Positions 15,981 to 59,880 of a stretch of 59,890 nt of DNA are shown one piece after another; the stretch's first letter is position 1, and every line of letters begins with the position of its first letter. Position numbers and translations under genes: made by a program. The notes under the pieces are model-generated. The model was not told the DNA's origin and did not search any database. It saw only the letters and a list, made by a program, of their open reading frames with translations. The stretch lies in assembly GCA_002429325.1 (NCBI GenBank), contig DIZH01000012.1, forward strand, positions 47,338 to 107,227, given 5' to 3'. Source of the stretch: Patescibacteria group bacterium UBA6033 (lineage in GTDB: Bacteria; Patescibacteriota; Minisyncoccia; Phycocordibacterales; Phycocordibacteraceae).

Positions 15981-16310
15981 GGAAAAGAACAGAGGCAATG
16001 TCGTAAGACAAATCGGATTTCGTTCTTCTCTGCAAAAGGGCTCTGTGAGAGTGACACCGCCTCACTCGTTATGGACAGTGGTATTCTCGTCAAACTCACA
16101 GAATTGGAATTGGTTGCGCGACACTCGTCTTTTCGTCTGGAGAGACAGATGTCGGTTCGTCGGCAACCAAAAGAGATGGTGGGGGACATGCGTCTCCTCG
16201 ATAGAAATCAATGAACAAATCGTCTCCCCACCTGAAACTGTCTCGACTGACCATGCCGAGCGGGAAAGGTGTACATGCACTGTAACGTCTCTAAAGACAG
16301 TTCCAGATTC
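15978..16310 (-). ncRNA. truncated third copy (unit 0) of the large structured non-coding unit; carries hairpins H6-H10 only
   Basis: Aligns with 16614-16910 and 18903-19200: same stems (ctgtgag/ctcacag, ggttgcgcgac/gtcggcaacc, ggtgggg/ccccacc) with different loops. Abuts unit A on one side and the terminator on the other. Confidence 0.6.
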
Positions 16311-16315
16311 GTCAT

Positions 16316-16965
16316 CACCCTCTTACAAAACACTTGAATAAACGTCCTGTAAGAGGGTGCCGACCACAGTGAGATAGATTTGAACCATCTCACGTGGTCG
16401 GCAGAGAGACAGACATTTCCTCACCCGAAGGCAGAACTTCCATCGTCTCTCGAAAAGGCGGTAATGGAAACAGGCTTAAGCTCGTTAAAGACACTTATCT
16501 TGTCGTCTCCATTACCTAAACTAGCAAAGAACACCCGCCAGCTGGCGGAGCAGCGAAACATCTTCATATTCGTCGTGAGACGCACTGGGAGTCGTCTCGC
16601 TGCGGAAAGAATTGCGGAAGGAAGACACACGTTCCCTCGAAAAAACTACTTGCGTTTTCGTCTTCTTCCGCAAAAAGGTTCTGTGAGAGTGATACCGCTG
16701 CACTCATCGCGATGACTATCGTCTTCTCGTCAAACTCACAGAATTGGATTTGGTTGCGCAACAAATGCGTTTTCGTCTCCTGAGAGACATTGGCTCCTAC
16801 GTCGGCAACCAAAAGGGGCGGTGGGGAGACATTCTCCTTTTCATGAAGACAGCCATGTACCTCGTCTCCCCACCTGAAACTATCTTGGCTAACCATGCCA
16901 AGCGGGAGGACATTTGGCGTTTCGTCATGCGACATGACACCTCTCGTCCTCGCAGGAGACAGTAA
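16316..16965 (-). ncRNA. large structured non-coding unit, copy A (about 650 nt, about 11 hairpins)
   Basis: No conserved reading frame. Hairpins H1 16318-16357, H2 16359-16402, H3 16404-16451, H4 16460-16516, H5 16550-16603, H6 16614-16671, H7 16679-16743, H8 16752-16810, H9 16820-16874, H10 16884-16902, H11 16924-16938. Stems conserved with copy B, loops not. Strand inferred from G.U/A.C asymmetry, promoters and terminators. Confidence 0.6.
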
Positions 16966-39058: not shown

Positions 39059-39101
39059 CAAAATGAAAAAGCACCTTTCGAGGCGCTTTTTCATTTTGCT
39101 C
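39059..39101 (+). terminator. terminator hairpin T1 (copy 1 of a 43-nt direct repeat)
   Basis: aaaatgaaaaagcacct ttcg aggcgctttttcatttt; 39 of 43 nt identical to 40046-40088. Confidence 0.75.
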
Positions 39102-39130
39102 CGCTGGATGGAGGATGTTCGAGAGGGTGT

Positions 39131-39820: not shown

Positions 39821-40045
39821 TGCTATTCTCCTTCAGGTTGGAATGTTCAAAATAAGCTTTTCAGCTCAGGCCAGTCTTCTATTTAACACTTGTATACTTC
39901 CTTGTCAAATTTGCTCCGCGGGTAGGACCGCGAGTACGCTTTTCGAAACTTACAGTTTCGGTACACCTTGCGGATTTTCTTTCAGAAAATGCTCGCAAGG
40001 TTTTCGAATCCTACACGGAAGCATTCATATGCTTCCTCCGCGTCA

Positions 40046-40088
40046 CAAAATGAAAAAGCGCCTCTAAAGGCGCTTTTTCATTTTGCTC
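40046..40088 (-). terminator. terminator hairpin T2 (copy 2 of the 43-nt direct repeat)
   Basis: aaaatgaaaaagcgcct ctaa aggcgctttttcatttt; symmetric A/T runs allow termination of the kinase transcript arriving from 40340. Confidence 0.7.
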
Positions 40089-40216
40089 GCCCTGCTCAAC
40101 GATTTTCGAACTTTTGACTGGGCGGAGGAGTATAAATATCCTACAGTGGTTTTAGACCAGATGAAAGGATTGCTGGCCAAGTACGAGAACCTGTAACCCC
40201 TCATTCCCCAGCTGTG

Positions 40217-40339
40217 TGCCCTTGTGGCGAGCTTTGTTCCAAAGGTAAGAGCTTTGCACCAATTGAGAAACTGACGAGCCGTAAAAGCAAATTTGAACCC
40301 TTGGGACGATTTGCTTAACTTTTGAAATATTAAGCAAAT
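40217..40339. repeat. 123-nt intergenic element R1
   Basis: About 103 of 123 positions identical to 47260-47382. Internal direct repeat GAGCTTTGTTCC / GAGCTTTGCACC 20 bp apart, plus a 10-11 bp inverted repeat gatttgcttaa N11 ttaagcaaatc. Confidence 0.8.
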
Positions 40340-41941
40340 CTATTTTGTTGCTGTAGGACTATTCGTGGGCAATTCCACAAAGAAAGTCGTGCCGACATTT
40401 TCTTTCGATTCAAACCATATTTTACCGCCATGTCCTTCAACAATTGCTTTGACAATGTAGAGGCCGAGACCGGTACCATCAGTTTCCTGCGTCTGTACAT
40501 TTTCGGCACGGAAAAACTTCTCAAACATTCTGCTTTGGGCTTTTTCTGGTATTCCAAGACCAGTATCGCTCATTGAAAAAGTGATCGCATCTGTCTTTGA
40601 TGAATCGAGGCCAATAGTCACCACACCTCCTTCATGGGAATATTTAACCGCATTGGAAAGCAAGTTGCCAAACACTTGGCGGATTTTATCTGCATCAACA
40701 GATAGCATGATGGTTTTAGGAAAGTTTTCAGCACGCACTATTTTTACTTTGTGTTTTTCTGCAAGCCCAATAAGGTCGGTTGCCAAAGAATCCAGCATCG
40801 GAACCATATCAGTTGGTATTTTTTTAATTTCAAATTTAGTTCCTGTCTCAATACGAGAGACATTGAGCAGATCTTCCACCAGCTTGATCATTCGCTCGTT
40901 CGAGTCATGAATCTGAGTGAGAAAATCTTTTTGATCAGCTGAAACTGCTCCAGCCTTACCTCGGAGCATGAGTTCGGCAAACCATTTGATACCGGTAAGC
41001 GGAGTGCGTAGCTGGTGAGATGCCACTGAAACGAATTCTGATTTCATTTTTTCAATCTCGCGTTCTTTTGAAATATCTTCAAAAACAACCACCGCGGAAT
41101 TGAGCGTACCGTCTGGATTTACAATCGGGACGGAAACAGCGCGAATACCAATTTTTTTACCATTAGTTCCTTCGATGACAATGTCTGATTTGGTGCTTGG
41201 TTGTCCCGTTGCAAGTGTAATGGGAAGTGGTAGTTCTTCCATTGGATACGGTTCGCCATTTTCACGCTTAAAATTATATATTTCGGTGTAGGATTCTTTT
41301 CCGGCTTGCGGATCAATCCCGCGACCAAGTAGCTCTATCGCTTTCTTGTTCACCATAGTTGGTTTGCCGGAAGGAGCCTCTGCGAGAAAGACACCCACAG
41401 GCAAACTCTCGAGAAGTACGCGTAATTTTTCTTTTTCGGCGCGAAGATTTTCATCGGCAATCTTTTGCTCGAGAGTGTTTGAAACCCATTTACCCATGAG
41501 CCGAACGAAATCCTTGTCGTTTTCTGAGAATTCAGGACGATGCGCTTCAGGTGATAGGAATGTGAGCGTGCCAAAAAGTTTTCCGGAAACCTTGATCGGC
41601 ACACCGAGATAGGATTCAAGATTAAATTTTTGGTAACAGACATGTGCGCTGTATTGCGAAGTTGCCATAGCACTAATCGCTACAACATCATCGGTTTTCA
41701 CCGTGATATCACAATATGTTTCTGCAAGTTTAAACTCTTCACCCTCTTTTAAGGTATTGGGCGGAACGACGCAGTAGAGGACGGTAAATTTGTCGCCTTC
41801 AATCCTGTTAATCATTGCCATGCGCGTCATAAGCGTGGTGTTGCCGACGAGGAGTGCACTTCGGAACTGCTCGGCAATGCCAAGCTCGGTGCGAGCAGTA
41901 ATTTCATATAGTGAGCGAAGTCGTGCGTCTTGAGTATCCAT
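40340..41941 (-). CDS. GAF-PAS sensor histidine kinase
   Basis: H-box SVASHQLRTPLTGI, N-box LLSNAVKYS, G1 DTGLGIP, G2 GTGLGLYIVK. Start moved to ATG 41941 (the track start 41992 overlaps the upstream gene). Confidence 0.9.
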   Translation of the reverse strand: MDTQDARLRSLYEITARTELGIAEQFRSALLVGNTTLMTRMAMINRIEGDKFTVLYCVVPPNTLKEGEEFKLAETYCDITVKTDDVVAISAMATSQYSAHVCYQKFNLESYLGVPIKVSGKLFGTLTFLSPEAHRPEFSENDKDFVRLMGKWVSNTLEQKIADENLRAEKEKLRVLLESLPVGVFLAEAPSGKPTMVNKKAIELLGRGIDPQAGKESYTEIYNFKRENGEPYPMEELPLPITLATGQPSTKSDIVIEGTNGKKIGIRAVSVPIVNPDGTLNSAVVVFEDISKEREIEKMKSEFVSVASHQLRTPLTGIKWFAELMLRGKAGAVSADQKDFLTQIHDSNERMIKLVEDLLNVSRIETGTKFEIKKIPTDMVPMLDSLATDLIGLAEKHKVKIVRAENFPKTIMLSVDADKIRQVFGNLLSNAVKYSHEGGVVTIGLDSSKTDAITFSMSDTGLGIPEKAQSRMFEKFFRAENVQTQETDGTGLGLYIVKAIVEGHGGKIWFESKENVGTTFFVELPTNSPTATK

Positions 41942-46400: not shown

Positions 46401-47216
46401 ATGAGCATTTCACTCCGTGATCGCTGGTCAACATCCATCCTCCATCTTTCGGCCTACATCGCCGGAAAGAAAAACGGACTTTTGACCGTGCACGGAATGA
46501 GATCACTTTTAAACGTATTACTCATTATCGGAGCCGAATTATTGCTTCTGGTTATTTCTTTGCCATCGTATGTTGCCGCGCAACCTATTAGTGACACAAC
46601 AGGAACGAACGAGTATCGCCTACGTCGCGCCTTGACGCTCGGCGTCATCGGCACACTTTTTATTATTTGGATTTTGAAACTTGCTCTTATTCTCACACTC
46701 GCCGGATTTGTAAAAACAAATACCACCACCATAACTGAAACCTATAATCAAACCGGCAACACTGAAACTCTTGCCGATGATGTGCTTATTGCCAAAGAAA
46801 GCGCAGAGCTTGCCTCACCGACGGTTACAAAAATTCAAAACACCAGAGGGCGAATTGCTTTCTGGGGTACAGCACCAGCCGGCAGTGTTGTTGTCTTTGC
46901 ATTTACGGAAAACATGAAAAATGCTTCCGACAAAGTAAGCACCCCAAAAATATATACAATTCAGGCAGATGCAAAAGGCCATTTTGAACTCTGGGAGGAC
47001 GCGTCTATTTTCAATCTTCCGAAAGGAACCTACACTGGAAGTGTAAGCGCGTACGATCCTGTACGGGAAATAAAGAGCGCGCAAAGTCACACTTTTTCGT
47101 TTACTGTCACAGAATCATTTTGGAATTCACTTCTATATTCAGCGGATACTATCCTTAACATCCTCGCTCTCCTTGTGATCCTCATCGGACTCCTAATGAC
47201 CATTTTGGTGGCCTGA
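46401..47216 (+). CDS. membrane protein sharing both termini with the giant surface protein
   Basis: N-terminus SLRDRWSTSILHLSAYI versus SLKSRWLNLMLHFSGII; C-terminal Ig-like domain plus TM anchor resembles residues about 1190-1322 of the giant protein. Confidence 0.75.
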   Translation: MSISLRDRWSTSILHLSAYIAGKKNGLLTVHGMRSLLNVLLIIGAELLLLVISLPSYVAAQPISDTTGTNEYRLRRALTLGVIGTLFIIWILKLALILTLAGFVKTNTTTITETYNQTGNTETLADDVLIAKESAELASPTVTKIQNTRGRIAFWGTAPAGSVVVFAFTENMKNASDKVSTPKIYTIQADAKGHFELWEDASIFNLPKGTYTGSVSAYDPVREIKSAQSHTFSFTVTESFWNSLLYSADTILNILALLVILIGLLMTILVA

Positions 47217-47259
47217 CCGCCCATGGCTCAGCTATCGAGCCCTCGTTGTCCCCTGTATT

Positions 47260-47382
47260 TGCCCTTGTGGCGAGCTTTGTACCGAGGGTAAGAGCTTTGC
47301 ACCAATTGAAACACTGACGAGCCGTAAGACCAAATTTGAGAGCGTGGAACGATTTGCTTAACTCGGACGATTTTAAGCAAAT
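47260..47382. repeat. 123-nt intergenic element R2
   Basis: Second copy of R1, same orientation, same internal direct and inverted repeats; inverted-repeat loop differs while the stem is conserved. Confidence 0.8.
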
Positions 47383-47391
47383 TATGCCGAG

Positions 47392-47586
47392 TCATAATTG
47401 CTTAACTTTTCCTTCACCTGATACATCTTCTTTTGGATCGGCTTTGGCTTTAAGCTTCTGCTCATACTGATAATCCAGCGTCATAACAATAAGCTCGGCT
47501 AACCGGTCCGAAAATATCTCCTCGGCCTTTTGCAGGTCTATACTTTCTGGTAATTTTTTGAACTGGCGTTTCATTTTAGGCATCAA
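47392..47586 (-). CDS. small charged protein (64 aa), last ORF of the defence-like cassette
   Basis: Start overlaps the KAP NTPase stop by 11 nt; Lys/Glu-rich; no family recognised. Confidence 0.45.
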   Translation of the reverse strand: MMPKMKRQFKKLPESIDLQKAEEIFSDRLAELIVMTLDYQYEQKLKAKADPKEDVSGEGKVKQL

Positions 47587-50500
47587 TAACAGAGTTAGAA
47601 GCAGGAATCACAACAGAAGTTTGGGCTACCTTTGTGACTTCGGTAACGTTATCGTCTAAGACTTTATAAACCATGGGGACATATTTTTTATACGAAGCTT
47701 CATCGTTACCCACGAATACGACTTTTTCTTTATCCTCAAGTTTGAGGTTTTTGAAAGTTGTGCCGTGTTTCTGCCAAAAAATTGAAAGCTTCACCTTATC
47801 CAACACTTTGATAAATTCATTAATACTTGGTACATATTTCAATCCATCTTCTCGTGCAGAAGCAAATGCACTAGCAAAGTTTCTGAACAAGTAGTCAATG
47901 AAGTATTCCGTGTTTTTAGTTTCCTTTGGGTCAAAGCAGTGTTCAAAAAGATAATCGTTAACTAAGTCTCTGATGGTGTGCTTATCCTCCGTTCCGGTAG
48001 GATCATAAAATCCGCATCCGGCTCCGAGATTGATTTCTGCGTTCGCCATTTGGTACAGAATAAAAGCACCCACACGAGTTTTTAGCTCAACGGATTTCTT
48101 ATCTATGTCCGTAGCTTGGAATATGCCATCGGCAATCTTCTGCTTAAGAAAGTTGTCATATTTACCAACGAGATTGGATGTTTGTAGAGCGTCAATTTCT
48201 GCAAAGATATTTTTCTTTGGAAGAATGTATCTCGTATTAAATATCTCGAACACCCTTTGGGATATCTCACGCATCTCTTCACGAGCGATATCTCTTGTAG
48301 AACCTGCGGAGGGAGCGTTCTGATTTGCGTGTTCTGCAACGGCTCGAGATAAATCAAAGATGTCGCCTCCACGGTCTGCACTACAAGACAACCTAAAAAG
48401 TAGTAAGTCGTGGATTCCTAATACACCTCGATTTTCTTCTGAAAGTGTTGCGAGTACACCACTGTCTGCGTGTCTACCTTCGCCAAAAACCCATTCGGCA
48501 ATTTCAGCGATGTGGGGCTGAACATTATTTGAATGTTTACCTTGTGGATCAATCCATCCGGCATCGTTCAGTAGTCTGGTGAGGAAATAATCCAAATTGT
48601 GTCGCAATCCCATTCCTACATTTGGGTCTCCCATTTCAAGTAAGGAATACTCGGGTATTGTCTTCAAAAGATAGGTAATTATTTCTTTTGCAATATCACT
48701 TGGCAATTCTCGTGCGTTGTTCACCAATATACGCCACAGCTTTTCTCTCCTGTTCTCTCCCTCACTATATGCAAACTTTTCATCTGCAAACGCAGTATCA
48801 ATAGTGACTGTTTTATTAATTATTTTATCTCTCCATTGAGTATAAAATTTATGTTGATCAACATCGACAGGTTTTGAGAGGTTCACAATTAAATCCAAAT
48901 ACGTCTCAAGATTCCTGCCATTTGTCCAACCACCGTTAAAACAGGCGAGCGAAGTGCGCACATCGTCTGGGATTTTATCTATGTTAGCGTATTCGTTACC
49001 ATAGAGACTTTTTTTATCGGTCTTCAAGCGTACGTCCACATTAAATACTTGGTCTAAAAGAAAACGCTGAGGGGTGTCTTCAGTAAATTCCAGCTCTTTT
49101 AAGTAGTCGTGATAGTGGGTTGAATTCTTGTAGGAAGAATCAGAAGATGACGATCTTCCTCGTGTCCCTGTTTCATCTTTCGGATAACCTTCATCGTAAG
49201 GTATTACCAATGAGAAAAATCCTCTACCACCCTTTGTCTCAGTATCATAAATCTTTCTAAAGACGCTCGGGTAATGGATATAGATGAGCAAAAGATTTAC
49301 CAAGTCTCGTTTATTAAAATCACTACTTTGAAAGTCCGTGGACTGGAGGTCAAACATCATGACGGTATTGATGAGCCGTTTCAACTTTCTTACATCACCA
49401 ATAAAAGGGAGATACCTGTGATACATAGACGAGTCGTATATATCGAGTAGTCCACCAATTGCCTGGCGCACTGGCAAGGGATCGACAATACTCGTAGTGA
49501 GTGCACTCTCAAGATTCTCCGATACATAGTTCTTCAAGTCTTCTCTATCTAAGTACAAGCTGATTTTTATGTTCACAAACTTTTCTAAAAACTCACCAAC
49601 CTTTTCAACATCGGGAGAATCGGCTTCAAGTACGCCTATGTTCTCTGTGTCATAACAAATGACGTACGAAACATTCGGAAATGCAAAACTTTTTCTTATA
49701 ACAAACAGTATGTCTTTTATTTCTGCAAAACTGATTCGATCCAAGTCATCAATAACTATAATGACTTTCCTTGGAAATCGTTTTAGAACGGCACTCAAGT
49801 CGTCGAATGCCTCCTCGGCTGTATAGTCCACTACAAAGGTCGGGAGAGTAAAACCGAATAGCGAAAAACGTTTTATCTCTTTGAGTAAGCGAGTATAGCG
49901 AGATATTAAGGGTTTTATTTCAGGGATGAATGCATTCTTTTGAATGGCATGTATCAAGCCATCAATAAAGACCTCCAGCAAATTTGCCGATCCTAAATAT
50001 CGAAGTGGACTGAATTTATAAATTACCACCCCGTCTGTGTACTTCTCCTCCCAGTACTCGTTGCAGAAATTTATAAAAGTTGATTTACCTATTCCCCAAG
50101 GAGCATCAACCCCGAACACAAAGCTCTCTGGTGATCCTCCGTTGAATACACGCTCCGCAAATGCATTGGCTTTCCCCGTAAAGTTTAGTAGATCGTTATC
50201 TCTACTCTTGAGCTCGATATCAGTAACTAGGGAAGAATCAGTCTTCTTATCTTGCCAAAGCAACTGCCGTCCCATTACTAGAGTCCCCAAAATAAAAGGT
50301 CCGGAAAGGATAGTAAGTATCTGAGTGATGTTAACAGAGGAAACGATCTTTGAAATCCATATCGATAGAAAACCACCCCACGCAATACTGAGCCAGATTC
50401 CGAAGCAAAAGATGATTAGCACATCAATACGGCAACTTCGGATGATTTTCTTTGAGTCGGCAAATACTCCACGTGCCAGCAGGTATGCGACTAGAAACAA

Positions 50501-50713
50501 AGTGCCTACAACGCAAACTGCTGTTGCTTTATATTCATAGTCATTGGAAGAAATCCATCTGTTCAACTTGTAGGCGATGGCAAGTGATAAGCCCCAAATT
50601 TCCGCACTTAAAATACCTAAAAAGGCGGTTTTAACCAGCACCACTAGGTTTGCTGTTATTATCCTGAAGTCGGATAAGGATTCTTTGAATCTAATAGCAT
50701 GTTTGTTAAGCAT
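47576..50713 (-). CDS. KAP-family P-loop NTPase with an N-terminal transmembrane module (1045 aa)
   Basis: Walker A GVDAPWGIGKSTFINF (KAP-type WG.GKS), Walker B VIIVIDDLDR; 4-5 hydrophobic helices in the first ~150 aa; long unassigned C-terminal region. Confidence 0.8.
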   Translation of the reverse strand: MLNKHAIRFKESLSDFRIITANLVVLVKTAFLGILSAEIWGLSLAIAYKLNRWISSNDYEYKATAVCVVGTLFLVAYLLARGVFADSKKIIRSCRIDVLIIFCFGIWLSIAWGGFLSIWISKIVSSVNITQILTILSGPFILGTLVMGRQLLWQDKKTDSSLVTDIELKSRDNDLLNFTGKANAFAERVFNGGSPESFVFGVDAPWGIGKSTFINFCNEYWEEKYTDGVVIYKFSPLRYLGSANLLEVFIDGLIHAIQKNAFIPEIKPLISRYTRLLKEIKRFSLFGFTLPTFVVDYTAEEAFDDLSAVLKRFPRKVIIVIDDLDRISFAEIKDILFVIRKSFAFPNVSYVICYDTENIGVLEADSPDVEKVGEFLEKFVNIKISLYLDREDLKNYVSENLESALTTSIVDPLPVRQAIGGLLDIYDSSMYHRYLPFIGDVRKLKRLINTVMMFDLQSTDFQSSDFNKRDLVNLLLIYIHYPSVFRKIYDTETKGGRGFFSLVIPYDEGYPKDETGTRGRSSSSDSSYKNSTHYHDYLKELEFTEDTPQRFLLDQVFNVDVRLKTDKKSLYGNEYANIDKIPDDVRTSLACFNGGWTNGRNLETYLDLIVNLSKPVDVDQHKFYTQWRDKIINKTVTIDTAFADEKFAYSEGENRREKLWRILVNNARELPSDIAKEIITYLLKTIPEYSLLEMGDPNVGMGLRHNLDYFLTRLLNDAGWIDPQGKHSNNVQPHIAEIAEWVFGEGRHADSGVLATLSEENRGVLGIHDLLLFRLSCSADRGGDIFDLSRAVAEHANQNAPSAGSTRDIAREEMREISQRVFEIFNTRYILPKKNIFAEIDALQTSNLVGKYDNFLKQKIADGIFQATDIDKKSVELKTRVGAFILYQMANAEINLGAGCGFYDPTGTEDKHTIRDLVNDYLFEHCFDPKETKNTEYFIDYLFRNFASAFASAREDGLKYVPSINEFIKVLDKVKLSIFWQKHGTTFKNLKLEDKEKVVFVGNDEASYKKYVPMVYKVLDDNVTEVTKVAQTSVVIPASNSVIDA

Positions 50714-50727
50714 GTCTGGGCATCTAG

Positions 50728-52995
50728 TTATAGTTCCTTAACCGCCCTTAGCGTCTCTTCAACATTCCCGGTATGAACTAAGAAAAAGTGTAGTTTTCCT
50801 CCACCGAGCTTCGACCATATTTCTCCAATTTCTATTTTATAGGCTGTATCTTCGTTGCTGATCCGGTCCGCACCTTTCCACTCCAGAGCGATAATCTGAC
50901 CTTTCTTTGTGACCGCAATAAAATCAGGATAGAACTTACCTCGCTTCCATCCCTGAATATAAAACGGATCAACCTTTTCTCGGCTACGAACCCAATACTT
51001 AATGTTGGGGAGAGTGTCCAGATCGAGACGCTGGACGAAACTAAGCTCCTCACCATTGAGCTTATCTATCTTCTCGTAATAATTTCTATTGAATTCTTGT
51101 GGCACTGCCTGTTTGAGAGAGATCGTGTTAGGGAAAGCCTCAAATGGCTTCGTTGATATTTTCTTCTTTTGCAAAAGCGTATCAAAATTTTCCTTTGCAT
51201 ACTTTTCCAGAACCCCATTAATAAACTCGCTCATTCGATCAGCCAGCACGTAACGGTTTACAGACAGCTCGGACAATGTACGGGTTTTAAGCTGATACTC
51301 GATGGCTTTATCAAGAAAACTCACCTTGTCTGACTTTTCGAGTAATGGAAAACGTAGCTTTTTATCAAGCCACTGCACCAGCTCACTTTTTGTGTAGTTT
51401 TTATCGGAGTACCGTAGCTTCAAGTACATCTGGGCTCCACGCATCCACTCATCGTCCTTCTGGATATCAATAATTGCTCGGCCGTCATTATCGTAATGGA
51501 TTTGGAACTCGAATTTATGATCTTGTTTAGCAAGCTCGAAGTCGTTTCCAATCAAGTCTTCAAAAGATAACTGATCACCCTCGAGGGCCATCATTGGCAC
51601 CTTGAGAACGTCTGATACGGCCTTTTTAGCTTCGAGCTCGTAAGTCGCATCTTTCTTGTCGCTACTGACAAGATCAGACCTGCTGTATCCATTGCTTTCA
51701 AGTCCGGAAATGATTTGACCGGCCGCTTCGTTAAAGTCTCTTGCCGAAGCAAAGACATAGCTCCTGTTAAAGTCCTCATCGGCTTTTCTTTTTGCATAAG
51801 GCAAACGAATGATGCGTCCGATAATCTGCTCGACGGCAATTTTTGATCCGAGGTTGGCAACCGAAACAAGGATATAAGCGAAAGAACAGTCCCATCCTTC
51901 TGCTAAAGCATTGACGGTAATGATGTAACGAATTTTGCAACTCTTACTAAAGAGATCAACTCCCTCAAGTTCGTTTTTCTCGGAAGTTTTGATCGCAATT
52001 TCATCGGCTGAAATCTTTCGCTCTAGTAAGAAGTCTTTTAGATGTTCGACGGTAACAGTGTGACCGTCCTTGCTCTTAGGCTGTGCCTGCAATAGAGCAA
52101 TTGGACGGATATATTCTCCTTTAATTTTCTTAGCGTCTTTCTCAAGCTCAATCCTTTTCTCAATTCCTCTAGTAACTGAATTCTGCCATTGAGCAGAACT
52201 CTCAAGTACGATAGGAATTTTCACCATCTGCTCATCCTTGAGCTCTGAAGCATGAATCTCAACCAGAATGTTGCTCTCACTGCGTGGTGTTGCAGTATAT
52301 TCAACAATAAAGCTTGGGTTGAGGTCTTTCAGGAAATCGATTGATAGCTTGGTTGTTGTTTTATGGCCTTCATCAATCACTATAAGTGGATTACTTAACC
52401 GAACAACGTTTGCCAGTGAGTTAATTACCGATCCTTCACTATCACGCTCAAGATAATCCGGCTCATCTATGTGCTCAAAGTGAGCTAGGAGGGTACCGTT
52501 TTCTTGATACACCTTGTACTTGTTTTGGAGAGATTTTTCTTTGCGGAACGCCTCGAGACTAGCAATGACGATACAGAGATTATCGTTTACATCTTCTTTA
52601 CGAATACTCAAAGCTTCCTCGTTGGAAAATACCTTTACGTTGTTATCAAACGCTTCATCAAGAACCCTACGATGCCAATCTTTCCGGTCCTTAAATTTCT
52701 TGAGGGTCTGAGTTTTGATTGCTTCCGAAGGTGTAAACCAAAGCACAATTCCACGATCCATTTTGTGTTGTAGCAGGCCGGACATAATCTTCTCAACGGC
52801 ATGACAACCTACGAGCGTCTTTCCACCACCAGTTGGGATTTTAATACAAACAAAAGGAACCTCACCAAACGCCTCGGCGTGATAAGGCTTTTCAGTAATG
52901 CCCATGAAAGCATACTTGAGGCCAGCCTTACGCAATTCCTTCAAGAATTGTTCGAGCGTTTCTAATGTATTTTTTTGGTATTTTTTAAGTTCCAT
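50728..52995 (-). CDS. res: type III restriction enzyme Res subunit (SF2 helicase plus PD-(D/E)xK nuclease)
   Basis: Motif I IPTGGGKT, motif II VIDEGH, helicase C-terminal motifs, C-terminal YPDFIAV...ALEWKG nuclease motif; directly downstream of mod. Confidence 0.85.
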   Translation of the reverse strand: MELKKYQKNTLETLEQFLKELRKAGLKYAFMGITEKPYHAEAFGEVPFVCIKIPTGGGKTLVGCHAVEKIMSGLLQHKMDRGIVLWFTPSEAIKTQTLKKFKDRKDWHRRVLDEAFDNNVKVFSNEEALSIRKEDVNDNLCIVIASLEAFRKEKSLQNKYKVYQENGTLLAHFEHIDEPDYLERDSEGSVINSLANVVRLSNPLIVIDEGHKTTTKLSIDFLKDLNPSFIVEYTATPRSESNILVEIHASELKDEQMVKIPIVLESSAQWQNSVTRGIEKRIELEKDAKKIKGEYIRPIALLQAQPKSKDGHTVTVEHLKDFLLERKISADEIAIKTSEKNELEGVDLFSKSCKIRYIITVNALAEGWDCSFAYILVSVANLGSKIAVEQIIGRIIRLPYAKRKADEDFNRSYVFASARDFNEAAGQIISGLESNGYSRSDLVSSDKKDATYELEAKKAVSDVLKVPMMALEGDQLSFEDLIGNDFELAKQDHKFEFQIHYDNDGRAIIDIQKDDEWMRGAQMYLKLRYSDKNYTKSELVQWLDKKLRFPLLEKSDKVSFLDKAIEYQLKTRTLSELSVNRYVLADRMSEFINGVLEKYAKENFDTLLQKKKISTKPFEAFPNTISLKQAVPQEFNRNYYEKIDKLNGEELSFVQRLDLDTLPNIKYWVRSREKVDPFYIQGWKRGKFYPDFIAVTKKGQIIALEWKGADRISNEDTAYKIEIGEIWSKLGGGKLHFFLVHTGNVEETLRAVKEL

Positions 52996-52999
52996 AGTA

Positions 53000-54559
53000 T
53001 TAGTAGACTTTTACTTCATAAGGGATCTGCTTGAAGACGATATTGTGCCTTGCGAGCGTATCGTCATCAATCAAGCACCGGTCTGCATATATTACTTTTT
53101 TGCCATCGGTATCCTTAATCTTTTTGAGAAATGACTTATCAAGGTCGTTCTTATTCTTGCCTTTATAAAGCAGGTAATATTCTGTCGTCTCAAGTTCGCC
53201 GATAAAATTATCATCAATTTTCTTGGGGTCTATATTCGTTTGAGTCTCAGTAAAATAAATGTAAGTAGCAAACTGCCTAAAGTCACAAGTTTCTTCAATC
53301 TGGCCACGTTCATTAAAGAGAGGCTTGTCGAGCTCGCAATATTCAAAGCCATCTTCGTAGCCATATTTTTTAATGGCTCTTTTGACTCTCTCGGCAGTTA
53401 TATCTTTTACAACCTTATCTTCCATTTCAACCATGATAAATTGGCGAGTACCACCATCCTCCTTATTCAAATCCAAAACCGCGTGGCCGGTAGTGCCTGA
53501 ACCCGCAAAAGAATCCAGTACTGTAGAATTTTCATCGCCACCATGCTTAATAAGAAATTTAATTAATTCTACTGGTTTTGGAGTATCAAATTGATCTTTT
53601 GTTCCAAAAATTTCTGTTAGCGCGGTAGATGCATCGGCAGTGTTAGCAAGATCATAAATAATACTTCTCGCCTTAATAACCTTATTCTTATCAGCTTCAA
53701 AATATATTTTTTCGTATGCCTGCCACTGATCGTTTTTCTTTTGAAATTCAATTAAATTGGCTTCAATTAATTCCTGCATTCTTATTTTTCCAACACGCCA
53801 ACGACCATCACTTCCGTCAGGAGCAATCGGAAGGACTTTAGTTTTGTCAGGAGCAGTAATAGGAAAATGCATGCTTGGTCTATCTTCTTTTCTAGCTGTA
53901 TTACCCCACTTTGCTAATTTTAAGAGAGTATATTTTCCTTCGGAATCAGTCTTGTTGTATTTTGAATCATTTTCCAAGACAACTTCATCTCTCCATACAA
54001 AAGACTCACTTTTCCTAAAAGTCATTATGTACTCATGCTCACGTACAAAATTAGCATCAGCTTGTCCGCCACCTTCTTTTTTTCTCCAAATAAAACTTCC
54101 AACGAAATTAACCTCACCAAAAATTTCATCCATTAACAATCTCAGGTTGCAATGCTCATTTTCATCAATAGAAATAAAGATAGCACCATCATCTGCCAGC
54201 AGATCTCTGAGGAGCTTCAACCTCGGATACATCATGCAGAGCCACTTGTCATGACGAGTGAGATCATCTAATTTCACAGTCTTTTTGAGCCACTGCTTGA
54301 TCTTGGGAGAATTAACTTTGTCGTTGTATACCCAACCCTCGTTACCGGTGTTATAGGGTGGATCGATATAAATACACTTTATTTTGCCGTAATAATAAGG
54401 CATGAGACCTTTCAGTGCCTCAAGATTGTCTCCGTGAATTATAAGATTTTGAGAATTGTCACCAACGGATGCTGTCTTAATCTTTTTCAGCAACTTAAAA
54501 GGCACCTCCTTGTCGTGGTTTACTACAGCTTCTTTTCCAATCCAGTTTAGTGATGCCAT
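53000..54559 (-). CDS. mod: type III (beta-class) DNA methyltransferase Mod subunit
   Basis: LNWIGKE N-terminus, motif IV IYIDPPYNTG preceding motif I VLDSFAGSGTTGHA (beta permutation). Confidence 0.88.
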   Translation of the reverse strand: MASLNWIGKEAVVNHDKEVPFKLLKKIKTASVGDNSQNLIIHGDNLEALKGLMPYYYGKIKCIYIDPPYNTGNEGWVYNDKVNSPKIKQWLKKTVKLDDLTRHDKWLCMMYPRLKLLRDLLADDGAIFISIDENEHCNLRLLMDEIFGEVNFVGSFIWRKKEGGGQADANFVREHEYIMTFRKSESFVWRDEVVLENDSKYNKTDSEGKYTLLKLAKWGNTARKEDRPSMHFPITAPDKTKVLPIAPDGSDGRWRVGKIRMQELIEANLIEFQKKNDQWQAYEKIYFEADKNKVIKARSIIYDLANTADASTALTEIFGTKDQFDTPKPVELIKFLIKHGGDENSTVLDSFAGSGTTGHAVLDLNKEDGGTRQFIMVEMEDKVVKDITAERVKRAIKKYGYEDGFEYCELDKPLFNERGQIEETCDFRQFATYIYFTETQTNIDPKKIDDNFIGELETTEYYLLYKGKNKNDLDKSFLKKIKDTDGKKVIYADRCLIDDDTLARHNIVFKQIPYEVKVY

Positions 54560-54562
54560 ATA

Positions 54563-55459
54563 TTATTTGCTTGCTTCGTACTTAAAATTCTCCGGAATCT
54601 TCCAGACACCTTTTTCTCGGAAAGCAGGAATCTTCTGCCGACGCGCGGCGTTGGAGAGAGCCGGTCCCGACAAAGAATGCTTCTTGGTGTAATCAGACAA
54701 AGGAATAATAGTCTCGCCTTTGAGATAGGTGATGCGTTTGTGGAATGATTCCATAAGACCGAGTACCAGAATCTTTTCCATCGTTTTAGTATTTTTACTA
54801 TCTCGATAATCGCCGAATGCCTGATAGTATTCTTTTTTCTCCCGGTCCCGAACGATGACACTTGGGAAGCCAAGTCGCTGGAGTTGATAGTTAATAAGCA
54901 CCCGTCCTATACGGCCATTACCGTCGTTAAACGGATGGATAGTTTCAAACTCCAAATGGAATTTACCGACCTTATCTAGGAAATAGGAATTGTGGTCACT
55001 GGTGTATTCAACCAATGTCGCCTCAATCATGCGTTCAACGTGCTCCGGAGCCGGTGCAATATGTGTCCCAACACGAACATACTCTCCTTTGGTGCGAAAG
55101 CGACCGGCGATCTGATCATTAATACCGCCGATCAACATCTGATGAAGTAACAAGATTGTTTCTTTGCCGATTTCGCCTTCCTGTGATTTGGTGCGGATAT
55201 AACCGGTAACTCTGGCAAGATTTTTTGCTTCAAAAACTTCGCGTACAGAAACATCACGTGATACTTCCATATCAAGCAAAATCTTCTCTGTTTCTTTAAG
55301 AGTCAATGTGGAGTTCTCGATTGCGTTTGAGTTATAAACCGCCTCCGGAACCTCTGCCTCATCAACCATCACCAAAAGAGATTCCTTGCCTTTGCGAATG
55401 GAGTCATACTCGGCCTTGAGTTCTTGAATACGCTTTTTTGTGGGGTTATTAATCGCCAT
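54563..55459 (-). CDS. fic: Fic-family protein (class II, N-terminal inhibitory helix)
   Basis: Fic motif HPFNDGNGRIGR; N-terminal SNAIEN fits the [S/T]xxxE[G/N] alpha-inh motif. Confidence 0.88.
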   Translation of the reverse strand: MAINNPTKKRIQELKAEYDSIRKGKESLLVMVDEAEVPEAVYNSNAIENSTLTLKETEKILLDMEVSRDVSVREVFEAKNLARVTGYIRTKSQEGEIGKETILLLHQMLIGGINDQIAGRFRTKGEYVRVGTHIAPAPEHVERMIEATLVEYTSDHNSYFLDKVGKFHLEFETIHPFNDGNGRIGRVLINYQLQRLGFPSVIVRDREKKEYYQAFGDYRDSKNTKTMEKILVLGLMESFHKRITYLKGETIIPLSDYTKKHSLSGPALSNAARRQKIPAFREKGVWKIPENFKYEASK

Positions 55460-55571
55460 ATAGCTATATAATAGTCTTTTAACACCTAAAAGTCAATAAG
55501 CTGTGAATAGAGCTTGAAACTCTGGTCTATTCACCACATAATATGCTAGAATAGCCTTGTTGGGCAATAAG

Positions 55572-56237
55572 ATGATTATGAAAATGAAAAAGGCCACTTT
55601 GGCCAAGAAATACAAATTTTCAATACTCCGATCCGTAAGTAAGACCAGCTCTTATCCTTTTTCAGTCTCTACTGTCACTGACAAACTCCGGTCCTCTCTG
55701 AAAGACTTTGCTGACGTAGAGAACCCGCAAGAAATTATTAAAGCTAGCGATCCGGCTATCGTAGCTCTAACCCAAGCAATAAACCGAAACACACAGAGCG
55801 TGGAGTCGATGACTCGAGCGTACCAAACCGCACTAGGAAAGGTTGCTGATTTGGAAAAGAATATTGCTCAGATGGTGGCCGAGGGTGCGGCCTATAGGCT
55901 AGCCGCCAAAAGAACAAAACTGGCAGACAAAAGTAAGATTATCTATTTCTCGAGCGACGGAGATTTATACCGTGAGCCAAAAGCCAAACATTGCTACCCT
56001 ATGGGCAAGGAAATGCAAAGACAAAAGATGGTACGAATTCTAATCGAACGTAAAACATTCGTACCGACTGATGCGCTGGTAGAACTTACCGGAAGCAAAA
56101 GCAGAAAGGCCATACACAATGCCAAGCTGATGATCAATGACAAAACCAAATACCATCTCGGCATTCCTCATTTTATAATCGGCCGGTCCGTCAGTGGTTA
56201 TAAAATCAATCCGGAATACAAAATAAAACTGGTGTAG
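55572..56237 (+). CDS. hypothetical protein (phage/plasmid-like)
   Basis: ORF divergent from the fic operon; ATG 55572 preferred over TTG 55557; basic C-terminal part may bind DNA. Confidence 0.55.
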   Translation: MIMKMKKATLAKKYKFSILRSVSKTSSYPFSVSTVTDKLRSSLKDFADVENPQEIIKASDPAIVALTQAINRNTQSVESMTRAYQTALGKVADLEKNIAQMVAEGAAYRLAAKRTKLADKSKIIYFSSDGDLYREPKAKHCYPMGKEMQRQKMVRILIERKTFVPTDALVELTGSKSRKAIHNAKLMINDKTKYHLGIPHFIIGRSVSGYKINPEYKIKLV

Positions 56238-56392
56238 CTCTAGTGTAGTTAATAACTCGCAAAACAAGTGGCCAAAATGGTCGCTTTTTTGTTTGCCAAC
56301 TTTACCAGCACTATATTCCAGAAGCCATATCGCGATTGCTATAAAGAATATGTGTGAGAGTAGAAAGTTAATGACGATGAAAATGCCAAAAT

Positions 56393-56635
56393 ATGGAAAA
56401 CAATTACTACAAAACCGCCGACCTGGCATTGGTCGCGGTGCTTTTATTATTTATTCCTGATTCTCTTGAGGTCGTGGATCGGGGAAATCCGCACAAGGTG
56501 CTCTTCTGCTTCGGCAAGAGCCCTGACTTGGATTCTCTGGTGAAGCGATATTGGAGCCGCGAGCTTCAGGTCGAGCCTCAAGCGTTCTTCAACGAGGTCA
56601 AACAGGTCAAGGTACGGATTTACGCCGAGAACTAA
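56393..56635 (+). CDS. DUF5659-like small protein
   Basis: YKTADLALVAVLL...HKVLFCFGKSPDLDSLVKRYWSRELQVEPQAFFNEVKQVK resembles the phage-associated DUF5659 pattern (recalled from memory). Confidence 0.55.
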   Translation: MENNYYKTADLALVAVLLLFIPDSLEVVDRGNPHKVLFCFGKSPDLDSLVKRYWSRELQVEPQAFFNEVKQVKVRIYAEN

Positions 56636-56640
56636 GACCT

Positions 56641-56850
56641 GTGAAAATAAAACCGGAAACGCTGGAGAAGCTCCGCGTGATTCTCAAAAAAGACTTCGGG
56701 CAGGAAGTGAATGACCAAGACCTGCACGACATCGCATTCAATCTCGTAAATTATTACGATGCCTTGTCGCGATTCTATCTCGAGGACATCACCAGTGGTC
56801 GAACGCTCATTGAGCCATATGACAATGTACCCAAGCGACAAGAAGTATAA
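56641..56850 (+). CDS. small hypothetical protein (69 aa, GTG start)
   Basis: In-frame GTG right after the preceding stop; weak. Confidence 0.35.
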   Translation: MKIKPETLEKLRVILKKDFGQEVNDQDLHDIAFNLVNYYDALSRFYLEDITSGRTLIEPYDNVPKRQEV

Positions 56851-57406
56851 GGTCCGAGATTACCGCGAAGCCCCGTTTGCCTACCAAGACAAACCGGCTT
56901 TGCGGTTTATGCGTCAGCAATGGCTCGATAAGAAAGTGAGCGACGATGCGTATCGCAATCTGCGTAACGTGTATTGCGCTTTGACCGAGATCGCTTCGAA
57001 CAAAGCGAGCCAGACCATAGAAGCATCAAACCGAACGCTTCGCCTTTACTGCGGCCTCAAAGATTGGCGAACGATTAAGAAGTGTTTGGATAAGCTCGAG
57101 GAGTGGGCTTTTGTCGCGATCACGAAAATCCGAGGCGAGGATGCCAAGTTCAAACCCCGAAGCATCACTTTGCTCTCCATCCTACATCTGAAGCAGGACG
57201 GTGGCCGATCAGCACGAAATGCCGAACGGCATGACACGCACACTGCGTCCGACGGCGATGATATAGAAGCTAAGGGATTAAAAGAAATTAAAGAAAATTA
57301 TAAAGAAGTTAACGGCGGAAACCAGATCAGGAAAATAAACCAGATGAAAGCCGATCTTGTGGCCAAGATGTCGTTCTCGTCGAATCGACATAAACGTAAT
57401 TACTAA
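56819..57406 (+). CDS. hypothetical winged-helix-like protein (possible replication/regulatory protein)
   Basis: ATG 56819 (MTMYPSDKKYK...); central segment NRTLRLYCGLKDWRTIKKCLDKLEEWAFVAI looks wHTH-like. Confidence 0.5.
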   Translation: MTMYPSDKKYKVRDYREAPFAYQDKPALRFMRQQWLDKKVSDDAYRNLRNVYCALTEIASNKASQTIEASNRTLRLYCGLKDWRTIKKCLDKLEEWAFVAITKIRGEDAKFKPRSITLLSILHLKQDGGRSARNAERHDTHTASDGDDIEAKGLKEIKENYKEVNGGNQIRKINQMKADLVAKMSFSSNRHKRNY

Positions 57407-57411
57407 AATCT

Positions 57412-57618
57412 ATGACCAAGCCTAAAAAGAAAACTGAAATTGAAATCGCTGACGATATCATCCGAAAGAATATGCCAAAAGCGGCAGAAGTTCTGATATC
57501 ACTTCTGGAAAGCAAAGACAAAGTGGTAAGAGCCCATGCGGCCGCTTACATCATTGAATGGGTAACCGGTAGACCACTCCTCATCATCCCAATTGAGAGC
57601 AAGAAAAGACTCTACTAA
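57412..57618 (+). CDS. small hypothetical protein (68 aa)
   Basis: Compact ORF in a co-directional gene string. Confidence 0.45.
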   Translation: MTKPKKKTEIEIADDIIRKNMPKAAEVLISLLESKDKVVRAHAAAYIIEWVTGRPLLIIPIESKKRLY

Positions 57619-57630
57619 ACACAACTTTTT

Positions 57631-58206
57631 ATGGCCAAGCTGAAACATATAACCAAATACCATGAACGCGCACTCGAGCTGAAATATAAAGGCTATTCCT
57701 ACCAAAATATTGCCGAGGATATAAATCATCGATTCCAAAAAAGTAGAAAGGCAAAATTCACCGAGCAAACGATTAAGGATTGGTTCAAGCAATCAGGAAC
57801 ACTACAGGAAACCTACCGGCTCTACGCGCAGGAACTGGATCTCATTCACCAAGAAACTGTAGACATAGTCCGGAAAGCCGGTGTGCGTGTTCGTGAGCAA
57901 AACTTTCGTCTGGCCAATGAAATGCTTGTAGCCCTTATGGGAAGCCAGCAAGACAATGTGAAGCTGGCGGCCATTAAAGAATTACTGGATCGTGTTGAGG
58001 GTCATCCAAAAGACAGAATTGAACTCAGTAAGCTGAATTTCACTGAAATGTCGCCAGGCGATCGCTGGGAATTTATTCCCTATGAGATGCAACTTGCCTT
58101 GGCACGCAATCAGTATCCCGATGCCAAAGCCGCGATAATAAAAAAGTGGCTTGCGGATGGAGAACCAGCTGTGGGCAACTCGAGCTTAGCGGATGAGCAA
58201 GATTAG
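57631..58206 (+). CDS. HTH-containing hypothetical protein
   Basis: N-terminal ELKYKGYSYQNIAEDINHRF...TEQTIKDWFKQSG looks like an HTH. Confidence 0.55.
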   Translation: MAKLKHITKYHERALELKYKGYSYQNIAEDINHRFQKSRKAKFTEQTIKDWFKQSGTLQETYRLYAQELDLIHQETVDIVRKAGVRVREQNFRLANEMLVALMGSQQDNVKLAAIKELLDRVEGHPKDRIELSKLNFTEMSPGDRWEFIPYEMQLALARNQYPDAKAAIIKKWLADGEPAVGNSSLADEQD

Positions 58207-58263: not shown

Positions 58264-59880
58264 ATGATTATGACAATGAATCAAGAAAATCAATCGATGC
58301 AAGCCGTAGGCTACGCCCGGGTGTCTTCCAAGGATCAGGAGGACACCGGCTATTCGCTTCCAGCTCAAGAGAAACTTTTGCGAGATTATGCCGACCGGAA
58401 CGGTTTTGAGCTCGTAAAAGTTTTTGCCATTCAAGAATCGGCCGCTGGAAAAATTCAGCGCAAGATATTTCACGAAATGTTGGAGTATGTAACCAAGTCC
58501 AAGATCAACACGGTCTTCGTGGAAACGACCGATCGCCTGACCCGTAACTTTGCCGATGTGCCGATAATCGACGAATGGATACTGGCCGATGAAAAGCACA
58601 CAATCCACTTGGTCAAAGAGGGCTGTACGCTACACAAAGACTCCAAGTCGCATGAGTGGTTTATGTGGCGAGTGAAAGTGGCTACGGCCGAATATTACAT
58701 CCGACTTCTTTCCGAGAATGTAAAGAAAGGACAAAAGGAAAAACTGGCTCAAGGCTGGCTACCAAGCAAGCCACCGCTCGGATATAAAACTATCGGCGAG
58801 AAAGGACACAAAATTCATGTGATAGACGAAGAAAAATCACCGATGGTTAAGAAAATGTTTGATCTCTATGCCACCAACGTAAGCTCAACTAAAAGACTGG
58901 CTGATGAAATGTACAAGCTCGGTATGAGATCTCGAGGAGGAAATAAAGTGAGTCACTCACGAGTCCACCAGCTCCTCGGTGATCCGTTCTACTACGGAAT
59001 GAATCGTTGGAACGGCAAGATTGGCAAAGGTGAACACGAGCCGCTCATCACCAAAGAATTATTTATGCGATGCCAAGACATCATGCATAGTAACGGCACG
59101 CCGAAACACAATAAGCACAACTCACTCTTTAAGAACGTCTTCCGCTGTGACGAATGCAAAGGAAAGGTGACGTGGGAGATACAGAAAGGCCACTGGTATG
59201 GCCACTGCAACCATTATAAAAACTGTTCGCAACGGGAATGGGTCAAACAGGAAAATGTTGATCTGCAGGTAATGGAGAATATTGAGCAATTAAGCTCGAA
59301 GCACGATGAGGCAATAGAAAACATGCTTGGTTGGGTCCAAACAGCTCTCAGGGAAAGTCATGGCGAGGAAATAGAATTCAGGGAAAAGGCCACTGGCGAG
59401 CTCGAACGACGCTACCAGGTAGCCACGCAGAGACTGGACAAGATATACGATGACAAGATCGACGGCAAAATAAGCGAGGATTTCTATCAGAAAAAGTACG
59501 AGCAGTACAAGCTCGAGCAGGAGGAAGTGATGGATAGCCTCAACAAGCATAAGAATGCCAACCTCAAGTACTACGATATGGGATCGACCTTCCTACAAAT
59601 GGCCAAGGAAGCGAGAAAGATTTATGTAAACCGAAGCAGTATTGAAATGGTCGACGACAAAAAACTGCTTATGTCCCTTTTATTTTCGAACTCGACGATA
59701 AATGGCAAGAAAGTTGAGATTTCATACCACAAAGCCTTCAAAATGGTCTCTGACCGAGTAATGCAGATGTTAGGAGAAAATGTAGACGAAAAAAAGACTT
59801 TCGAACCGCCAAAAGAGCCCGTCAATAAAGGAAAAACACCAGCTTTCGCTGATGCTCATCCTATCTGGCTCCGCGGGTAG
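58264..59880 (+). CDS. large serine recombinase (integrase)
   Basis: Resolvase catalytic domain AVGYARVSSKDQ (Ser nucleophile), recombinase domain, Cys-rich zinc ribbon CDECKGKVTW...GHCNHYKNC, coiled-coil C-terminus. Confidence 0.9.
   Translation: MIMTMNQENQSMQAVGYARVSSKDQEDTGYSLPAQEKLLRDYADRNGFELVKVFAIQESAAGKIQRKIFHEMLEYVTKSKINTVFVETTDRLTRNFADVPIIDEWILADEKHTIHLVKEGCTLHKDSKSHEWFMWRVKVATAEYYIRLLSENVKKGQKEKLAQGWLPSKPPLGYKTIGEKGHKIHVIDEEKSPMVKKMFDLYATNVSSTKRLADEMYKLGMRSRGGNKVSHSRVHQLLGDPFYYGMNRWNGKIGKGEHEPLITKELFMRCQDIMHSNGTPKHNKHNSLFKNVFRCDECKGKVTWEIQKGHWYGHCNHYKNCSQREWVKQENVDLQVMENIEQLSSKHDEAIENMLGWVQTALRESHGEEIEFREKATGELERRYQVATQRLDKIYDDKIDGKISEDFYQKKYEQYKLEQEEVMDSLNKHKNANLKYYDMGSTFLQMAKEARKIYVNRSSIEMVDDKKLLMSLLFSNSTINGKKVEISYHKAFKMVSDRVMQMLGENVDEKKTFEPPKEPVNKGKTPAFADAHPIWLRG

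Follow-up and report, generated by a model that had tools for sequence, protein, structure and literature searches.

We analysed a stretch of 59,890 nucleotides (nt) of contig DIZH01000012.1 from the Patescibacteria group bacterium UBA6033, an ultra-small organism of the candidate phyla radiation (CPR), hereafter called the window, in which a Fic gene, a type III restriction-modification (R-M) pair (mod and res), a gene for a KAP NTPase and a small open reading frame (ORF) follow one another on the minus strand. With a probability of about three in four, three independent anti-phage modules are stacked and transcribed together in this cassette, which rides as cargo on an island of low guanine-cytosine (GC) content beside a serine integrase and a tRNA-Asn gene. 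The original prediction had proposed a composite system in which a restriction arm is joined to an abortive-infection arm; this was not borne out, as the combination proved to be unconserved in surveys made separately from KAP, from Res and from Fic. The part of it which stands is that Fic and KAP are recurrent components of defence islands and that the genes are of defence type. PADLOC assigned the parts separately, to PDC-S04/SoFic, to type III R-M and to a PifA/QatA-like KAP, all of them already listed.

The cassette comprises the genes of Fic (54563-55459, 298 amino acids (aa)), Mod (53000-54559, 519 aa), Res (50728-52995, 755 aa) and the KAP NTPase (47576-50713, 1045 aa), and the small ORF (47392-47586), which has 64 aa from the TTG at 47586 and 63 aa from the ATG one codon later. 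The ORF list agrees with the positions first given for these five consecutive minus-strand ORFs. Further copies of the arrangement occur in several contigs of groundwater-type metagenomes, all 100% identical and of the same population, and the nearest named relative is a metagenome-assembled genome of Candidatus Yonathbacteria.

The cassette is an instance of the known stacking or embedding of defence genes and not a new composite system; no new system is required, the five-gene set being explained by known kinds of defence module. What is new lies in the detail: an uncharacterised KAP family, a docking site at a type III R-M operon of CPR bacteria with a hypervariable slot after res, a conserved non-coding sequence here called element E, and one Fic gene found at the head of unrelated R-M operons.

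Exchange of the modules among related loci

The neighbourhoods of the KAP gene were surveyed with one genome per species, 41 loci being searched with the proteins of the window (individual loci carry the prefix L). Mod-Res upstream of KAP in the same direction was found in L003 only (1 of 41; KAP 98% identical), a locus without Fic, and Fic is absent from all 41. An HTH-Mod-Res set (HTH, helix-turn-helix) stands divergently to KAP in L006, and weak R-M-like genes are present in L021. The neighbourhoods differ in nearly every genome. Their recurrent members are a serine recombinase within 10 kb (15 KAP-bearing loci, the window included), assorted R-M genes of types II, IIG, III and Mrr and, in 7 loci, a module of ParB-methylase, small HTH protein and a protein of ~490 aa, which may be phage-derived. 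L005 has the integrase, the backbone ORFs and the KAP of the window in common with it, and carries an Eco57I/TaqI-type methyltransferase in place of Fic-Mod-Res.

Even against L003 the cassette is a mosaic. At the DNA level the last part of mod and the res gene are 88-93% identical to their L003 counterparts; near the 3′ end of res the identity climbs to 96%, and KAP and the first half of the small ORF reach 97-100%. Because of this step in identity, with its breakpoint near 50,900 (Res/KAP), the recent history of KAP is judged to be different from that of the abutting Res. The central part of mod (53526-54101), presumed to be the target-recognition region, is swapped relative to L003, and Mod is 65% identical overall to its L003 counterpart against 98% for Res. 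Since this central region is replaced, the predicted methylation and restriction specificity should differ from that of L003.

From Res, the best 80 of at least 216 metagenomic loci were taken (Res identity 65-98%). In none of these 80 does this KAP follow Res, and in none is a Fic gene adjacent; together with the absence of Fic from the 41 KAP loci, this means that the gene combination on which the composite had been proposed is not conserved. L047 is instructive, as its Mod is 99% and its Res 98% identical to those of the window, and yet an 83-aa HTH_17 protein replaces Fic and a 782-aa protein replaces KAP. The same HTH gene as in L047 lies upstream in L114 (Mod and Res 98%), whose contig ends inside res so that the position behind it is not seen.

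This position behind res is a hypervariable slot. A same-strand ORF stands at most 60 nt after res in 45 of 72 loci, and the occupants fall into more than 30 unrelated clusters. By their profile matches those which can be named are defence genes: Avs4 (PADLOC E=0), PDC-S06/AAA_13, a different KAP, a Ppl-like ATPase, PDC-M36A, a RelA/SpoT-like protein (RelA_SpoT), DUF3644, DUF5677 and a weak SMODS match. The unnamed proteins, of 1066 aa (L076-79, L111), 831/782 aa (L055, L047), 599-601 aa (L069, L119), 514 aa (L058) and 319+746 aa (L052), with related loci spanning L047-L126, are candidate new defence genes. The slot is thus a rich and sharply bounded hotspot, and it offers a ready list of candidates from a lineage with few tested defences. 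Exchange is seen at other points as well; inserts of 51-308 aa lie between mod and res in ~20 loci, and the slot upstream of mod is elsewhere filled by HTH_17, HTH_3, DUF7695 or AbiEi/AbiEii.

Fic is likewise a separate module, because its followers vary across the six other contexts that were sampled (Fic identity 87-94%). It is followed by RadC and a type I R-M system (94% identity), by RadC-HsdR-HsdM (88%), by an unrelated type III pair which again starts 3 nt behind fic (92%; Mod 31%, Res 26%), by DUF924 and MazE-Doc (90%), by RhuM and DUF3800 with an SNF2/PLD gene ~3 kb further downstream (87%), and by RecO and housekeeping genes (93%). The context of 92% identity is an island with a related backbone and no KAP. 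In L132 (6001-12897), L146 (6001-11327) and L143 (6001-10853) a Fic 88-94% identical to that of the window lies directly 5′ of unrelated R-M operons, type I with RadC twice and the unrelated type III once, with junctions ranging from a 4-nt overlap to ~90 nt. The Fic gene is therefore often, and not always, found at the head of an R-M operon of varying type.

The embedding of defence genes in other defence operons has been described before, and 96.7% of the embedded genes share the orientation of the surrounding operon (Payne et al., bioRxiv 10.1101/2024.01.29.577857). The cassette resembles these embedded genes, and PrrC in EcoprrI, in that unrelated genes stand tightly packed and in the same orientation in or by an R-M operon, that the occupants vary between relatives and include established single-gene defences (Avs4, PDC-S06, KAP), and that transfer is linked and regulation probably shared. 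It differs in its carrier, here a type III R-M family from CPR bacteria where that study dealt with Hma, BREX, DISARM and type I R-M; in the position of Fic and KAP, which flank the operon (though the ~20 related loci mentioned carry inserts between mod and res); and in element E, which closes the slot behind res in several loci.

Properties of the three modules

The identification of the Mod-Res pair as a type III system, made originally from the letters, was upheld for Mod and the gene order, and Res is a putative type III-like subunit. Mod matches PADLOC MTase_III over its full length (5.7e-159), as well as the Mod proteins of EcoP15I (5e-49) and H. pylori (5e-54) in the PDB, and carries the motifs DPPY (residues 67-70) and FAGSGTT; it has the predicted features of a type III beta-class N6-adenine methyltransferase with a central target-recognition region. 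Res matches Pfam ResIII (3e-13) and PADLOC REase_III (5.9e-90), the best-scoring stretch of the latter being the N-terminal 434 residues only. Its superfamily 2 (SF2) helicase motifs GGGKT (56-60) and DEGH (208-211) and a C-terminal PD (690-691) with EWK (705-707) are invariant in the alignment. No match of Res to solved Res structures was obtained by sequence. Its AlphaFold model is poor (predicted local distance difference test (pLDDT) 50), and its best fold matches, the PD-(D/E)xK nucleases TnsA, Cas4 and Hjc, are not significant (all E >0.05). The gene mod lies immediately 5′ of res, and Mod is upstream of Res in ~74 of the 80 related loci.

The pair is like EcoP15I-type systems in its mod-res order, its beta-class adenine methyltransferase with a central variable specificity region, and the SF2 helicase motifs of Res, which are joined by a putative PD-ExK motif at the C-terminus. 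Unlike EcoP15I, it has a short Res (755 aa vs ~970) without detectable similarity to the solved EcoP15I Res. From what is known of the type III family, Mod would methylate adenine in its target sequence, and a complex of Mod and Res, through the helicase/ATPase and PD-ExK nuclease of Res, would cut incoming DNA which is unmethylated. Cleavage in this family depends on ATP and on two unmethylated sites in inverse orientation, and its Mod proteins hemi-methylate the DNA.

The Fic protein gave matches to Pfam (5e-20), to PADLOC PDC-S04 (7.1e-33, profile positions 29-236 of 244) and to PADLOC SoFic (4.7e-28, positions 52-253 of 361). The NCBIfam profile ProtAdlyltaseSoFic scored 29.1 bits, far under its cut-off of 550, so that Fic is not a full-length match to the curated SoFic family. 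By sequence its matches in the PDB are FICD (9e-23) and SoFic (9e-5). The catalytic motif HPFNDGNGRIGR occupies residues 175-186 (H175-R186) and the inhibitory motif SNAIEN residues 44-49 (S44-N49); both had been pointed out before, and both are invariant in an alignment of 10 homologues. We regard the protein as a class II Fic protein of the PDC-S04 (SoFic-like) candidate family, and as probably an AMP-transferase. Hundreds of homologues above 83% identity were found across CPR lineages.

SoFic is a single-gene defence with a Fic domain, accompanied by a small AS1 antitoxin gene downstream (PMC12249575), and in groundwater prokaryotes R-M and SoFic exceed all other defence families in abundance (PMC12259885). 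The window protein shares with SoFic/PDC-S04 the HxFx(D/E)GNGRxxR core, the N-terminal (S/T)xxxE(G/N) helix of class II, the size and domain order, and the frequent occurrence in groundwater and CPR genomes. It differs from SoFic in matching best the candidate family PDC-S04 and in having no AS1-like or antitoxin-like small gene downstream of fic, where mod begins 3 nt past the stop. By analogy with SoFic, its own inhibitory helix at the N-terminus would keep it inactive until infection, when it would AMPylate cellular or phage proteins. A relationship between the Fic C-terminus and the small HTH protein which precedes Mod in other loci was also considered and rejected, as BLASTP found no similarity between them.

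The 1045-aa protein was recognised from the start as a KAP P-loop NTPase with an N-terminal transmembrane module, and Pfam, hydropathy and the AlphaFold model all agree with this. The Pfam KAP_NTPase profile scores 131.8 bits (cut-off 20) over residues 183-453; Walker A is GIGKST (207-212) and Walker B DDLD (322-325), with G207, G209, K210 and D322-D325 invariant in 68 sequences. Hydropathy and the model place ~4 membrane helices, all N-terminal within residues 16-152, before a P-loop domain (~180-460) with no predicted membrane helix inside it. The C-terminal region (470-1034) is conserved and all-helical. In the model (pLDDT 78) the membrane helices form a bundle, which is followed by the P-loop domain and by a long C-terminal region made up of helices only.

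No match to the PDB was found by sequence. The fold matches are ORC/Cdc6, RdrA of RADAR, SAMD9, Avs3, NOD2 and Apaf-1, with TM-scores of ~0.2 which reflect a general STAND/AAA+ likeness only, so that no effector domain can be named. The best PADLOC match is PifA, its best stretch covering residues 298-406 only, and QatA matches the P-loop alone with 23 bits against a cut-off of 600. The protein is thus not a full-length match to PifA or QatA, and gene and domain searches of the window found no QatBCD-like neighbours.

KAP NTPases which combine membrane helices with an uncharacterised C-terminal region have been validated as single-gene defences, and their genes lie near serine recombinases (PMC13552941). 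The window protein is like these, and like tmn and PifA, in its P-loop with intact Walker A and B, its membrane helices, its large domain-less C-terminus, the serine recombinase nearby on mobile DNA and its stand-alone distribution. In the typical KAP family and in tmn the membrane helices are inserted in the P-loop domain, whereas the ~4 helices here are all N-terminal to it. Unlike the KAP single-gene defences, its C-terminal region is much longer (~570 aa), highly conserved and helical, and its neighbour is a large serine integrase and not a small recombinase; unlike PifA and QatA, it gives only partial profile matches. By precedent from the class, the helical C-terminal region would probably sense a phage cue, and NTP-dependent switching or oligomerisation may then let the membrane module or the C-terminal region block infection. 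The 64-aa gene would be a lineage-specific accessory of KAP.

For this KAP, more than 120 full-length homologues of 45-98% identity were found, mostly in CPR bacteria, and the family reaches Paenibacillus, Cohnella, Undibacterium, Actimicrobium, Flavobacteriaceae, Ignavibacteriales and Selenomonadaceae. Full-length homologues of 29-54% identity were also recorded in L024, L025 and L028-L030 (Paenibacillus, Cohnella), L027 and L040 (Burkholderiales), L015 (Flavobacteriaceae) and L041 (Selenomonadaceae). Because full-length homologues occur in cultivated bacteria of other phyla, the sequences indicate cross-phylum transfer, and these bacteria are tractable hosts for testing the family. Viral contigs gave one full-length distant match (38% identity) and four partial weak ones. 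Large, membrane-anchored and KAP/STAND-like, common in CPR and scattered elsewhere, the family is a promising candidate member of the class of single-gene KAP defences validated recently. In one otherwise identical copy of the locus (L148, 10547-13615; JGI 3300013427) the gene call gives KAP 1022 aa and leaves 83 nt between Res and KAP, which implies a sequence difference at the 5′ end of KAP.

Transcription, island setting and alternative readings

The claim of a single operon can be graded as probable only. The junctions are as first reported: 3 nt between fic and mod (stop 54563, start 54559), 4 nt between mod and res (53000, 52995), 14 nt between res and KAP (50728, 50713) and an 11-nt overlap of KAP with the small ORF (stop 47576, TTG start 47586), which becomes 8 nt if the ATG is used, the start taken in public gene calls. 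Among the other co-directional pairs of the window the median gap is 45 nt, and 37% of them lie at 15 nt or less. Four tight junctions in a row would occur by chance with a probability of ~0.02 if independent, a tightness which is above typical and unexceptional for a compact genome. Because such short gaps are common in the genome, packing by itself is weak evidence for a functional unit. A promoter-like site, TTGACT-17 nt-TATTAT, was found at 55468-55496 on the minus strand, 8 nt 5′ of the fic start codon; it has 10 of 12 matches and is the best in 46900-56400. It likely marks the start of the cassette transcript, which would then be nearly leaderless. A scan found no good terminator-like site at the internal junctions, nor is there room for one, and the five genes are probably read as one transcription unit.

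The proposed working of the stack would be as follows: the type III R-M operon acts as a docking site for other defence genes, recombination brings the modules together, with the 5′ side of mod, the 3′ end of res and element E serving as conserved junctions, and once joined they share a promoter and are transferred jointly, without needing each other. The strongest competitor, though improbable, is a facultative coupling in which Fic, KAP or both are second-line sensors that fire when anti-restriction proteins disable Mod-Res, or in which KAP synergises with a neighbouring ATPase. The same orientation, the junctions of at most 14 nt and the single promoter-like site would fit it, as would the sensor-type ATPases in many post-res slots (Avs4, PDC-S06/PrrC-like, another KAP, Ppl-like) and the repeated position of Fic at the head of R-M operons of different types; precedents are given by PrrC in EcoprrI (bioRxiv 10.1101/2024.01.29.577857) and by tmn, which synergises with Gabija, Septu and PrrC ATPases (bioRxiv 10.1101/2022.08.21.504612). 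A guard of the PrrC type is kept latent through physical contact with its R-M partner until anti-restriction factors release it. However, since the partners are freely exchanged, such coupling cannot need specific contacts with this Mod-Res, and no R-M system is adjacent in ~35 of the 41 KAP loci or in 3 of the 6 other Fic contexts.

A bolder extension, which we consider somewhat less probable still, is that type III R-M operons of CPR bacteria are dedicated docking platforms. Cassettes would be exchanged at fixed points before mod, between mod and res and after res, element E with its inverted repeat would be a recombination or RNA-processing site closing the last slot, and the docked sensors (this KAP, Avs4, PDC-S06 and others) and the Fic gene in front would be wired as guards against anti-restriction, generalising the principle of PrrC.

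That the cassette travels as cargo of a tRNA-linked integrative island follows from its surroundings, because low GC, a serine integrase, a tRNA-Asn gene and housekeeping genes beyond are found together. The GC content is 0.42-0.43 from ~45.9 kb through the cassette to the end of the window, 0.51 upstream of 45.9 kb and 0.53 past the integrase. Divergent from the cassette, on the plus strand, small backbone ORFs of 226, 80 (DUF5659), 215, 68 and 191 aa (55557-58206) are followed by a large serine recombinase, the integrase, of 538 aa (58264-59880). These backbone ORFs are common to related islands with other cargo; the DNA is 76% identical in L005 and the 191-aa ORF 96% identical in L143-145. 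The tRNA-Asn(GTT) gene (59866-59940, minus strand) overlaps the 3′ end of the integrase by 15 nt and is cut by the end of the window; it was found in L045, the same contig extended, at 11603-11677, and housekeeping genes come next on the contig past the window. At 39913-39927, where GC drops (~40 kb), the 3′ end of the tRNA-Asn gene recurs as an exact 15-nt direct repeat, and for these two reasons a composite tRNA-Asn island of ~20 kb is suggested. A search for an empty site to fix the island ends found none, every contig with the flanking response regulator also having the island. A tRNA-Asn gene also borders defence cargo in L005, L015, L048, L052, L067, L086, L117 and L132.

This setting invites a reading, with a slight probability only, in which Fic is an addiction toxin, the R-M system a post-segregational killer and KAP a PifA-like exclusion or element-competition factor, all mainly stabilising the island or excluding rivals. 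It would suit a cassette riding on an integrase-bearing island at a tRNA gene, the frequent position of KAP homologues by serine recombinases and the possibly phage-derived modules (ParB-methylase, small HTH protein, ~490-aa protein), a best PADLOC match of KAP to PifA, which is an F-plasmid protein, and the known stabilisation of mobile elements by R-M systems (PMC4176335). But it is compatible with anti-phage defence, as one set of genes can serve both ends; on their own, related KAP and SoFic proteins protect against phage (PMC13552941, PMC12249575), and no antitoxin-like small gene follows fic. Least probable of all, and very unlikely, is an obligate five-gene system with a restriction and an abortive-infection arm: tight packing, a probable single transcript and the identical arrangement in several contigs (100% identical copies of one population) speak for it, but the combination is missing in all diverged relatives of each component surveyed, L003 has no Fic, a different Mod specificity region and a Res/KAP recombination breakpoint, and PADLOC splits the parts into separate systems.

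Several points weigh against the stack of independent modules. A genuine multi-gene system would likewise be packed tightly under one promoter. In the window and in 3 of the 6 other contexts Fic stands at the head of an R-M operon, which is above the expectation for a random neighbour and hints at a general link between Fic and R-M. With ~40 KAP loci and the best 80 of at least 216 Res loci covered, rare recurrences of the full combination could be missed. The mechanisms given for Fic and KAP rest on analogy, and the C-terminal region of KAP matches no known domain.

Element E and the 3′ end of the cassette

The 64-aa ORF encodes a charged protein and is probably a real gene, as judged from the 6 synonymous and 1 non-synonymous differences from L003. 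Profile and domain searches gave no family matches. It is confined to near-identical copies of KAP and is absent from the other KAP loci. A 55-aa ORF at 47228-47395 was considered as a sixth gene and rejected, its frame being broken by stops or shifts in L003, L047, L052 and L119 despite conservation of the DNA.

The DNA which contains this spurious ORF belongs to element E, a conserved non-coding element of ~150 nt (long form ~270 nt) at 47258-47410 on the minus strand, with the invariant inverted repeat ATTTGCTTAA-N11-13-TTAAGCAAAT. Similarity to related cassettes ends sharply at 47258. Element E closes Mod-Res-X cassettes, whatever X, in L003 (11798-11945), L047 (6792-6944), L048 (11725-11870), L052 (13450-13600) and L119 (9398-9549), and weaker copies lie 3′ of KAP in L005 and L008. 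No match of the element was found in Rfam. A structured RNA is unsupported, as RNAalifold with 6 and with 9 copies backed only the invariant hairpin, without covariation. A pattern scan of IMG/VR for phage copies gave 44 seed hits, none of which was a real copy by covariance model.

The window holds a second copy of element E at 40202-40347 (long form from ~40080), also on the minus strand and 85% identical, and the two direct copies bracket a segment with a histidine kinase, an fn3 protein and a response regulator. A 64-nt sequence is present in two 80%-identical copies (39059-39122 and 40046-40109), each with a strong hairpin between A and T runs (AAAATGAAAAAGCRCC...GGCGCTTTTTCATTTT) which resembles a bidirectional terminator; the second copy lies between the repeat of the tRNA end and the element E copy at 40202-40347. 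Elsewhere in the window, at 16018-16912 and 18636-19204, direct repeats of nine families (40-91 nt, 60-100% identical) keep one order in two or three blocks. The spacing of the blocks is ~640 and ~2290 nt, and they surround small ORFs and a stretch rich in GC (0.62).

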